Of a DNA stretch of 64,000 nucleotides, positions 60,001 through 63,000 are shown piece by piece (positions within the stretch are counted from its first letter, which is position 1; every line of letters starts with the position of its first letter). The stretch comes from an uncultured Verrucomicrobiae bacterium (GTDB lineage Bacteria > Verrucomicrobiota > Verrucomicrobiia > Chthoniobacterales > UBA10450). Made by a program: the position numbers. The stretch spans positions 1,922,001 to 1,986,000 of the forward strand of contig OY970345.1 of assembly GCA_963717545.1 (NCBI GenBank), given 5' to 3'.

Positions 60001-63000
60001 GGTCATTGCGAAGGAAGAACGCCGCGCGGACGCCCTCGCCGAAATTCAAGCCCTGCGGGACCGCGACTATCGCGTCGATTATCCGCTGGCTCCCGCCAAG
60101 GTCGGGAAACAATTTCAGACCGCGGAACAGCTCGGCGCTAAAGTCGCGATTCTTTTCGGCGACGAATGGCCTCAGTTGAAGGTAAAGGACCTGCGCTCAG
60201 GCGAGCAATGTCTGGTGGCGCAGGAACAAGTTGCTGCGAAACTTGCCGCTCTCGTGCAAACCTGATGTATCGGACCCACCACTGCGCCCAGCTCCGCAAA
60301 AGCGACATCGACTCGCGCGCGACCCTCGCTGGCTGGGTCCATGTCCGCCGCGATCTCGGGGGCGTTGTCTTCGTCGACTTGCGCGATCGCGAAGGTTTGA
60401 CGCAGGTCGTTTTCCGGCCGGAGGAAAATGTCGAGCTGGCCAAACAAGCCCATCAGCTCGGCTATGAGGACGTCATCCAGGTGGAAGGCAAAGTGGCGCC
60501 TCGCGCGCCCGGCATGGCTAACCCGCGGATGCCCACCGGAGACATCGAGCTTCTGCCTGACAAACTCATCGTCCTGAACCGCGCCGACGTCCTGCCCTTT
60601 CCGGTTATCGAGAGCGAACCGGCGAACGAAGATTTGCGCCTTAGCTATCGCTACGTCGATCTTCGCCGGCCCCGGATGTCGCGCAATCTGCGGCTCCGGC
60701 ATCGCGTCACAAAAGCGGCCCGCGACTTTCTCGACGAAAAGGGATTCATCGAAATCGAGACGCCGATTCTCTCCAAAAGCACACCGGAAGGCGCCCGCGA
60801 TTTCCTGATTCCGAGCCGGGTCACGAAAGGGAAATTCTATGCGTTGCCCCAGGCGCCGCAGCAATACAAGCAGCTGCTCATGGTCGGCGGCGTCGAAAAA
60901 TATTTCCAGATCGCAAGGTGCTTTCGCGACGAAGACCTGCGTTCGGATCGGCAGCTCGAATTTACCCAGATCGATATCGAGGCTTCGTTCATCACGCCGG
61001 AGGACATCTACTCACTCGTGGAAGGTTTAATGGCCGCGCTGTTCCGCGCCGGACGCGATGTGGAAATCGCGAGGCCGTTTCCGCGCATGACCTACGCGCA
61101 GGCGATGGATGAATTTGGGAGCGACAAGCCGGATCGCCGCTTCGCGATGCGTCTGGTCGACGTCGGCGAAATTTTTCGCGCCAGTTCTTTCAAGGTGTTT
61201 CGCGGCGCGCTCGATTCGGGCGGCGCGGTGAAAGCCATTAACGCGAAGGGATTCGCTTCGCTTACCACCGGGCAAAGCGACGATCTGACTGAGATGGCGA
61301 AACATTACGGCGCGAAGGGACTTGCCATGATCAAGGTCGAGAATGGCGAATGGAAATCGCCGATCGTAAAGTTCTTCTCGGACGCAGAGAAGGAAGCGTT
61401 GCGCTCGAAGCTTCTCATCGAAGAAGGCGACTTGATTCTTTTCGTGGCCGACAAGTGGGCCACGACCTGTGAAGTGCTCGGCCGGATTCGTTTGCGGATT
61501 GCCGAGATGCAGAATCTGACCGCAAATTCCGAACAGCTCGACTTCCTTTGGGTGACCCAGTTTCCATTGATGGCATTCGACGCCGCCGAGAATAAGTGGA
61601 ACGCAGTCCACCATCCGTTTACGCGGCCGATAGCGGAAGACCTTGCGAGGCTCGAAGCCGGCGATCTGGCCCACGTCCGCGCGGAAGCGTACGACGTTGT
61701 CCTAAACGGCGTCGAACTGGGCGGCGGCAGTATCCGAATTCACGAGCCCGATTTGCAGGCGAAGGCTTTTGCCGCCCTCGGGGTGAGCGAAGAAGACCAG
61801 CAATCACTTTTCGGACATCTCCTCCGCGCCTTTCGCCTCGGCGCACCACCGCACGGCGGGATCGCGTTCGGTTTGGATCGCATCGTCATGATGATTTGCC
61901 GCGAAGAAAGCATCCGCGAAGTCATCGCCTTCCCGAAAACCAACCGCGGCCTCGACCTGATGTCGCAGTCGCCGAGCGACGTCGACGCCCGGCAGCTACG
62001 CGACCTGGGAATCAAGCTCGCGACGGACGATAATGACGGTTAGAGAGCTGGTCGGGAAAGGCTGCTGAGTTTCCGCGGCCGAACGCTTACGCCGCCGTCG
62101 GCCGCACGTGCGGGCGGCTCTTGAAAAGGATGGCCACGCAAAAGGTGACGATTGTTCCGAAGAAAATCCACCAGGGGAATTCCATGACAGGGAGCCACGA
62201 CGGCTGCTCATAAAGCTTCGCGCCGAAAATGCCGGCGACGCCGTTGGGCAAGCCGCTCAGAATCGCGACGACGATGAAGCCGCTGATCATGGCGAGAATG
62301 TTCCCGCCATCGTTGCCTCGATTTCTTGTCAGCATACCGGCAAAAAAGACGCCGAGGAGCGAGCCGTAGGTGTAGCCGAAGATTCCAACGACGATCGGGA
62401 TGATTCGGACGTTTGGATGCACAATCACCAGGTAGGCGGTTGTGCAGGCGACGAAAATCATCAGGACGGAAAACCAGATGGTGGCCCAGCGGACGGCGCG
62501 CAGACTTTGCTCGTCGGTGGCCGCCGGGTTGATGTAGGGCTGGTACCAATCGCGGGTGAAACTGGTGGCGAGCGCATTCAGGGCGGTGCTGAGCGAGCCC
62601 ATGGCGGTGGCGAAAATTCCGGCGAGGAGCAAACCGCGAAGGCCAACCGGCATTTGATAGAGAATAAAATGGCAGAAGGTCTCGTTCGGGGTTTTGGATA
62701 GGGTCGGGTCGGGGTGGGCCTGGTAGTAAACCCAGAGAAGCAAACCGATGCTGAGGAAGGTGAACGCGATCGGGATGTCGGCGAGACCGGAGAGGATGAG
62801 AGAGCGCCGGCTCCGCCGGATATCTTTCGCGGTCAACATTCGTTGGACCATGTCCTGGTCGGTGCCATGCGTGCCCATGGTGATGAACACCGCTCCGAGG
62901 ATGGCAAACACCGTGTACTCCGTCTCGAACATGCCTTTCCATTTGTCCCAGCCATGTCTGGCTGGATCGAGGCCGGTGGCGAAAAGGTCGGAGACCTGGA

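Follow-up and report, generated by a model that had tools for sequence, protein, structure and literature searches.

Many lineages in the family of this uncultured Verrucomicrobiae bacterium have probably lost the gatCA and gatB loci separately, each loss being paired with an aspS allele that encodes leucine rather than histidine at position 31 of aspartyl-tRNA synthetase (AspRS), that relatives likely supplied through recombination, and whose product is predicted to charge tRNA-Asp only. Firstly, the Leu31 allele and the absence of intact GatCAB go together across genomes. Secondly, the gat deletions left separate scars in different lineages. Thirdly, some genomes carry fresh gat pseudogenes. 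Fourthly, the ancestry of aspS is discordant with that of the genomes in which it resides. The starting cell would have had AsnRS and GlnRS alongside GatCAB. Import of an anticodon domain with Leu31 and a changed 84-85 loop would end the aspartylation of tRNA-Asn, such that Asn-tRNA would be supplied by AsnRS only, and GatCAB would be left without a substrate, GlnRS covering the need for glutamine. The two unlinked gat loci would then decay, with free asparagine coming from an AsnB-family paralogue or from uptake. This is in keeping with the available parts of two sources, in which GatCAB serves mainly for tRNA-dependent asparagine synthesis where AsnRS and GlnRS are both present (PMC4206432, PMC2330236).

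The window, the 64,000-nucleotide stretch of DNA analysed here (from genome G000), encodes a bacterial-type AspRS of 592 amino acids with the Leu31 allele (aspS, 60265..62043, forward strand), which exceeds the cut-offs of PRK00476 and of the bacterial-type profile TIGR00459 (728 bits against 374), and falls below that of the archaeal-type TIGR00458 (221 against 368). Codon 31 is CTC (60355..60357, forward strand), giving the RRDLG motif reported by the first-pass annotation, where 56 of the 56 His-type relatives read have histidine. The structural contrast drawn by that annotation also holds, as sequences aligned at position 31 have RRDHG in the PDB chains named Asp/Asn ligase (4wj3, 5w25 and 4rmf), and RRDLG in 1c0a. 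This residue lies in codons 1 to about 100 (60265..60564, forward strand), which we take to be the anticodon-binding domain from established AspRS architecture, and which are the sole Leu31-type tract in three mosaic relatives (G306, G302 and G297). The loop at positions 83 to 85 reads Gly-Met-Ala (60511..60519, forward strand), retaining the Gly83 that aligns with a lysine in E. coli. Position 84 is threonine in 55 of the 56 His rows, the lone exception being a frameshifted row, and methionine, glutamine or a gap in 29 of the 30 Leu rows, in which Glu85 has mostly become alanine. A further cluster of changes lies in the insertion region, presumably the GAD region around residue 335, where Thr335 (61267..61269, forward strand) is shared by 28/30 Leu rows and replaced by isoleucine in 54/56 His rows. 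Finally, Thr559 (61939..61941, forward strand) recurs in 22 of the 29 Leu rows read at that position, with asparagine in all 55 His rows read. Strictly diagnostic positions do exist, as had been claimed, but they number nine, rather than 15, when 11 Leu rows are set against 26 His rows. The stop codon of hisS (59012..60265, forward strand) overlaps the aspS start, and this gene provides a linked control that follows species kinship, unlike aspS. On the other side, a sodium/solute symporter gene (62087-63817, reverse strand) converges on aspS, its coding sequence running in two different frames (63237-63689 and 62087-63817), probably as the result of a long-read frameshift. It adjoins aspS in most His and Leu relatives alike, ruling it out as a Leu31-specific importer of asparagine.

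Residue 31 could be read in 39 of the 40 genomes of the genus, G024 having no aspS match, and was leucine in 11 and histidine in 28. The GatB_N domain was found in 28/40 genomes, and in 16 of the 22 that are at least 90% complete, with gatA over its cut-off in 25/40, none of them Leu31. The seven genomes from which gatB had been reported missing do all lack GatB_N, and four further Leu31 genomes were identified (G008, G010, G014 and G033). The pairing of His31 with GatCAB, characteristic of a non-discriminating enzyme with a transamidation route, was seen in 27 of the 28 His31 congeners, the exception being the 50% complete G037, which lacks gatB; G000 has neither half of this pair. Two seeming exceptions among the Leu31 genomes proved foreign: a gatB piece in G010, on a contig of 1,965 bp, is 47% identical to congener GatB and 73.6% identical to that of Sinorhizobium, while a gatA piece in G033, on a contig of 3.6 kb, shows 54% identity, against 79-85% among congeners. 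The small foreign contigs concerned carry an alphaproteobacterial gatB end (L045, G010:C236), and a gatCA start adjoining a reverse-transcriptase-like ORF (L081, G033:C126). G024, the rpoB sister of the Leu31 genome G027, is 69% complete and has the start of gatC at a contig end (L271, G024:C145) and no recovered aspS; it could represent either a sister with His31 or a bin of mixed origin.

That Leu31 goes with GatCAB loss, as the first-pass annotation proposed, has stronger support than it had claimed, since five further genera of the family show the same coupling. AspRS was read in 86 family genomes, 30 with leucine and 56 with histidine. All 30 Leu31 genomes are without native intact GatCAB (28 absent, two pseudogenes), and gatB is present in 52 of the 56 His31 genomes, with three of the other four keeping a full gatA and one being 50% complete; the search pattern for leucine required RD, such that RNLG forms in other gatB-positive genomes would escape it. 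Three unpublished genomes (G008, G298 and G308) contribute rows to these tallies and to the trees, and no conclusion depends on them alone. GatB was matched in 182 of 211 family genomes that are at least 85% complete, and 25 of the 29 negatives are Leu31 (nine of the 29 being inferred from tallies), comprising eight from this genus, all five of group g7, G093 of g5, seven of g6, three of g79, and G230 of g13. A further three (G304, G274 and G344) are His31 and keep a full gatA, so their missing gatB is probably an assembly gap, and neither aspS nor gatA was recovered from G239. Across an order-wide sample of 171 genomes, GatB was found in 165, the six without it being the Leu31 genomes G000, G093 and G118, and three His31 genomes with a full gatA, judged from the pattern matches listed. 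The Leu31 alleles of G261, G262, G256 and G230 (L100, L108, L109 and L125), from two genera, have an MHRNLG motif, of which G008 and G027 share the MH part, and G262 and G256 have an additional two-residue deletion in the 83 loop. The only pattern match listed for G107, a gatB-positive member of the order, is GWVNTKRDQG (G107:C17:49541-49569), which, if it belongs to aspS, would have glutamine at position 31.

These surveys bear on which change came first. No His31 genome with a verified loss of GatCAB was found, the six well-assembled candidates that miss gatB all keeping a full gatA; equally, none of the 30 Leu31 genomes read retains intact GatCAB, although some would be expected had the synthetase changed first. 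The latter result is as predicted if GatCAB, made dispensable by AsnRS, was lost first, leaving a His31 enzyme that leaked Asp-tRNA-Asn until an imported Leu31 allele or domain rescued the cell. The clean gatCA deletion in G306 could have been such a first step, and, to the extent covered by the available text, a non-discriminating AspRS proves toxic in E. coli when no GatCAB accompanies it (PMC3367201), which would be a strong reason to import the domain. Yet a rare recombination would be needed within a harmful interval, and no verified His31 loss was seen; this sequence of events, although the main rival, is rather unlikely. A change in the synthetase, followed by decay of GatCAB, is slightly favoured, because the reverse order passes through a state expected to be toxic.

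The Leu31 AspRS is predicted from its sequence to be of the discriminating type. His31 and Gly83 were reportedly found by Bernard et al. in 2006 to favour recognition of tRNA-Asn by the non-discriminating AspRS of P. aeruginosa, where the effect of H31L is reportedly only a few-fold. Discriminating bacterial enzymes are expected to have leucine at position 31, and a residue other than glycine at position 83. The window protein has the first of these and not the second: Gly83 is kept in G000 and in 28/30 Leu31 rows, as the first-pass annotation had cautioned, with the remaining two having a loop deletion at this position. Furthermore, RRDLG is found in two Bacillales AspRSs, that of B. subtilis is reportedly non-discriminating, and some Bacillales enzymes are relaxed; hence Leu31 alone may not discriminate. 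The available part of a 2008 review gives the opposite for B. subtilis (PMC2330236). It could therefore be suggested that the Leu31 enzymes still charge tRNA-Asn, with their changes reflecting release from contact with GatCAB, or hitchhiking, and with competition from AsnRS and rejection by EF-Tu limiting errors. The retained Gly83, the Bacillales motifs and the clustering of changes in the insertion region as well fit this suggestion, as does S. aureus, which has AsnRS and a non-discriminating AspRS according to the available portion of one source (PMC4206432). However, one would not expect relaxation to arrive at a single residue in 30/30 genomes, or to bring about the repeated import of the anticodon domain alone, and the relaxed enzymes known so far occur in cells with GatCAB retained, leaving continued charging of tRNA-Asn improbable.

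Movement of the Leu31 allele is made likely by the conflicting ancestry of aspS and its neighbours. The informative sites in AspRS of G009 join it with the Leu group over its sister G034 by 45:9, while those in its HisRS divide 9:20, and its DNA identity to G034 falls at the hisS/aspS boundary. This aspS joins the Leu group at 99/99 with the 12 trait codons removed, although an AU test of its grouping with G034 was borderline (p 0.053); in-place replacement is nevertheless supported in G009. Tree conflict and a breakpoint, which together mark in-place replacement, were both found for G313 and for the domain tract of G306. The aspS of G313 is grouped with the Leu alleles by 81:5 sites, and its grouping with its rpoB sisters was rejected (p 1e-59). 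Three genomes are mosaics, being Leu-like within codons 1-100 and resembling their sisters after that: the counts are 12:0 and then 11:54 in G306, 13:0 and then 14:47 in G302, and 16:1 and then 11:31 in G297. The DNA identity between G306 and G311 is correspondingly 0.65 in codons 51-100, and 0.84-0.90 in hisS, aspS from codon 101, asnS and gltX. Another aspS copy in G297 (C80, L136), a second aspS on a small foreign contig, was set aside as contamination, its sequence being close to that of G277. The HisRS of G006 (L014) is sharply divergent from that of its congeners over codons 150-245 or thereabouts, with 0.49 DNA identity to G027, possibly through a second recombination tract or a frameshift. 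Taken together, these comparisons of sequences indicate that Leu31 aspS has likely moved by recombination, as a whole gene in G009 and G313, and as codons 1 to about 100 only in G306, G302 and G297.

The number of times that Leu31 itself arose is a separate matter, and may be anything from one to three or more. Removal of 25 co-varying codons leaves the eleven whole-gene Leu alleles of g5, g6 and g7 in a single clade (100/99), and the companion states differ by group, with Met84 in this genus, Gln84 in g5, g6 and g7, and RNLG with loop deletions in g79. Such differences make two or three origins plausible, and could be extended to the view that each lineage acquired Leu31 and its companions by its own convergent point mutations, with no transfer at all, CAY to CTY being a single base change. 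Synonymous sites name no donor, as they are near saturation, for which reason trees built from them were dropped, and the test of the G008/G027 allele’s origin gave an AU p of 0.067. Convergence throughout is nonetheless very unlikely: the sharing spans dozens of non-trait positions (the 45:9, 81:5 and 12:0 counts above) and survives the removal of trait codons, and the drop in identity to the sister begins, in G009, where hisS gives way to aspS, and in G306 is restricted to codons 1-100.

Neither the loss nor the residue is explained by a single event in one subclade, as the first-pass annotation had proposed. The genus Leu31 sequences do group together on AspRS protein trees, but a seven-locus tree that excludes aspS (21 genomes) has three changes of residue 31 within the genus, and rejects the monophyly of the 11 Leu31 genomes (p-AU 4.6e-62). 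On this tree, G009 (Leu) is the sister of G034 (His) at 100/100, and G008 with G027 (both Leu) the sister of G006 (His) at 100/99. Likewise, an rpoB tree of 67 family genomes requires 14 changes for Leu31, 12 of them forced by supported branches, albeit that this is a quick tree of one gene for chosen genomes (all 30 Leu and 37 His). All 12 of its independent pairs are concordant, the Leu31 side being the one with GatCAB loss (p 0.0005), with G304, G274 and G344 scored as having kept GatCAB. Hence about a dozen lineages apparently lost GatCAB separately, and the AspRS case illustrates how a synthetase tree can fake a clade.

The gat loci themselves record these losses. Both the gatB and gatCA slots of G000, which is assembled as a single contig, are closed deletions with intact flanks: in the former, a four-helix gene directly abuts the ATG of glycerate kinase at C1:1,425,866, and in the latter the flanks meet at about C1:2,044,070-2,044,150. 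A tblastn search of this genome with GatA, GatB and GatC gave no match at E<0.01, and its asnS is intact, such that it has AsnRS without a usable Asp-amidotransferase. The four-helix gene was correctly noted in the gatB slot, but is a flank and not a replacement for gatB, because it also precedes intact gatB in the gatB-positive G006 and G011. Small interchangeable cassettes occupy this site, before gatB or glycerate kinase, across the loci surveyed (L230-L257, and C1:1,425,870-1,426,240 in G000); they comprise two four-helix variants, a GxxExxY-like gene, or nothing, are bracketed by short tandem repeats, and vary in type independently of the presence of gatB. The gatB slot is closed, with both flanks on one contig, in 22 Leu31 genomes, which rules out assembly gaps as the cause of gat absence.

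The gatCA scars differ between lineages. That of G009 retains the spacer and first gatC codons of the type found in its His31 sister G034, to which both flanks are closest (81% for the downstream flank, against 70-74% to others), while that of G027 retains a G006-type spacer and a 35-codon remnant of gatA. A third junction is common to seven other genomes, and that of G000 differs again. The G306 gatB has four frame breaks, while the genes on either side of it are uninterrupted and 89-96% identical to those of G311, and gatCA has been removed cleanly from this genome, whereas G313 has a gatB with an internal deletion of about 230 codons and a stop, and a gatA that is truncated with a stop. These broken genes fix the direction of change as loss. 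The tally of losses leaves out the broken gatB matches of G312 and G370, and those of G312 point to sequencing error because its rpoB is also in pieces. Hence a single ancestral loss, after which some descendants recovered the two gat loci together with a His31 aspS, or with incomplete bins creating the pattern, is highly improbable despite the single Leu31 clade on AspRS trees, the fragmented state of most bins and the gatC start at a contig end in G024, since it would leave unexplained the closed slots, the sister-specific remnants and the pseudogenes that show ongoing loss, and would need three unlinked loci to have returned several times.

What changed in these repeated losses was one of two routes to Asn-tRNA. 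The presence of AsnRS and GlnRS described by the first-pass annotation was confirmed in the subsets rechecked, with AsnRS over its cut-off in 9/10 genomes (the exception being G034, in 700 contigs) and as an intact ORF in G000, and GlnRS in 5/5. As AsnRS occurs in both groups, cells that had two routes gave up the indirect one, which differs from the swap from indirect to direct synthesis that had been envisaged. The U1-A72 pair of tRNA-Asn is kept in G000, G093, G230, G316 and G261, that of G118 being split over two contig ends, and tRNA-Asn shows no drift in these Leu31 genomes. This pair is described as a feature of the non-discriminating AspRS and transamidation route in the available parts of two sources (PMC2330236, PMC9976931), and, being retained here, is uninformative as to which route is in use.

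As regards free asparagine, AsnA was found in none of nine Leu31 genomes tested, and the search found neither a housekeeping asparagine synthetase nor one gained in step with GatCAB loss, the AsnB copies being different paralogues in different lineages. The single AsnB-family gene of G000 passes TIGR01536 and fails the E. coli-type PRK09431, is common to His31 genomes, and is flanked by what we read as glycosyltransferase-like ORFs, and the sole copy over cut-off in G093 is 29% identical and adjoins a ketosynthase-like ORF. In G316 (C2:2,983,608-2,991,603), about 5 kb separates asnS from the AsnB-family gene; the two are far apart in G000. Asparagine is not visibly depleted in RpoB (3.17% against 3.15%) or in HisRS. 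These genomes presumably belong to the same family as Ca. Udaeobacter. Amino-acid uptake has been proposed for Ca. Udaeobacter in the available part of one source (PMC7343977).

The His/Leu marker, the pathway, and the exchange of synthetases among kin in general are already known. The system resembles that of P. aeruginosa in the residue and in its direction, histidine occurring with GatCAB and leucine without it, and the equivalence of position 31 was confirmed by alignment with 4wj3 and 1c0a. However, the known contrast is between distant phyla, whereas here it recurs between sister species, with Gly83 kept, positions 84 and 85 changed, and the allele moving between genomes. As described in the accessible part of the source, Bdellovibrio bacteriovorus and Legionella pneumophila have the same set as the His31 relatives, of one bacterial-type AspRS, AsnRS, GlnRS and GatCAB, and also share the U1-A72 pair, read here in Leu31 genomes; they have retained the indirect route that the Leu31 lineages are dropping (PMC4206432). 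The same partial source describes a discriminating AspRS in Lactobacillus delbrueckii bulgaricus, likewise narrowed to tRNA-Asp (a prediction in the present case) once AsnRS is present, but that species keeps GatCAB for Gln-tRNA, whereas GlnRS is present here and GatCAB is deleted (PMC4206432). The homeoalleles of synthetases exchanged among kin are similarly replaced in place by a relative’s version, but are characterised, in the available text, as ancient divergent forms of identical function (Andam and Gogarten 2011, PMC3191353). The Leu31 and His31 alleles instead are about 70-85% identical, are predicted to differ in the tRNAs that they accept, can be transferred as one domain only, and are linked to the loss of a pathway. 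Repeated recent switching with transfer of an allele and domain was not found in the full-text literature, subscription journals and supplements lying outside this search, which also returned no description of GatCAB loss in Verrucomicrobia.

Accounts of how bacteria gave up the ancestral two-step synthesis of Asn-tRNA usually compare species as far apart as E. coli and P. aeruginosa. In this family, close relatives are separated by the same transition about a dozen times over, some with half-decayed gat genes, and natural chimeras exist in which the anticodon domain is the only foreign part. Hence matched enzyme pairs of about 85% identity (G306 with G311, and G009 with G034) are available for mapping AspRS discrimination, with residues 84, 85, 335 and 559 as new candidate determinants. 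The losses also raise the metabolic question of where Leu31 cells get their asparagine. More tentatively, and at a probability somewhat short of even, the discriminating anticodon-binding domain may be a transferable module that sweeps through species and genera, is grafted onto the native AspRS, and each time would switch off tRNA-dependent asparagine synthesis and trigger the deletion of GatCAB. As the recipients share no housekeeping synthetase, they would then be asparagine scavengers, or cells with an unrecognised source of this amino acid.
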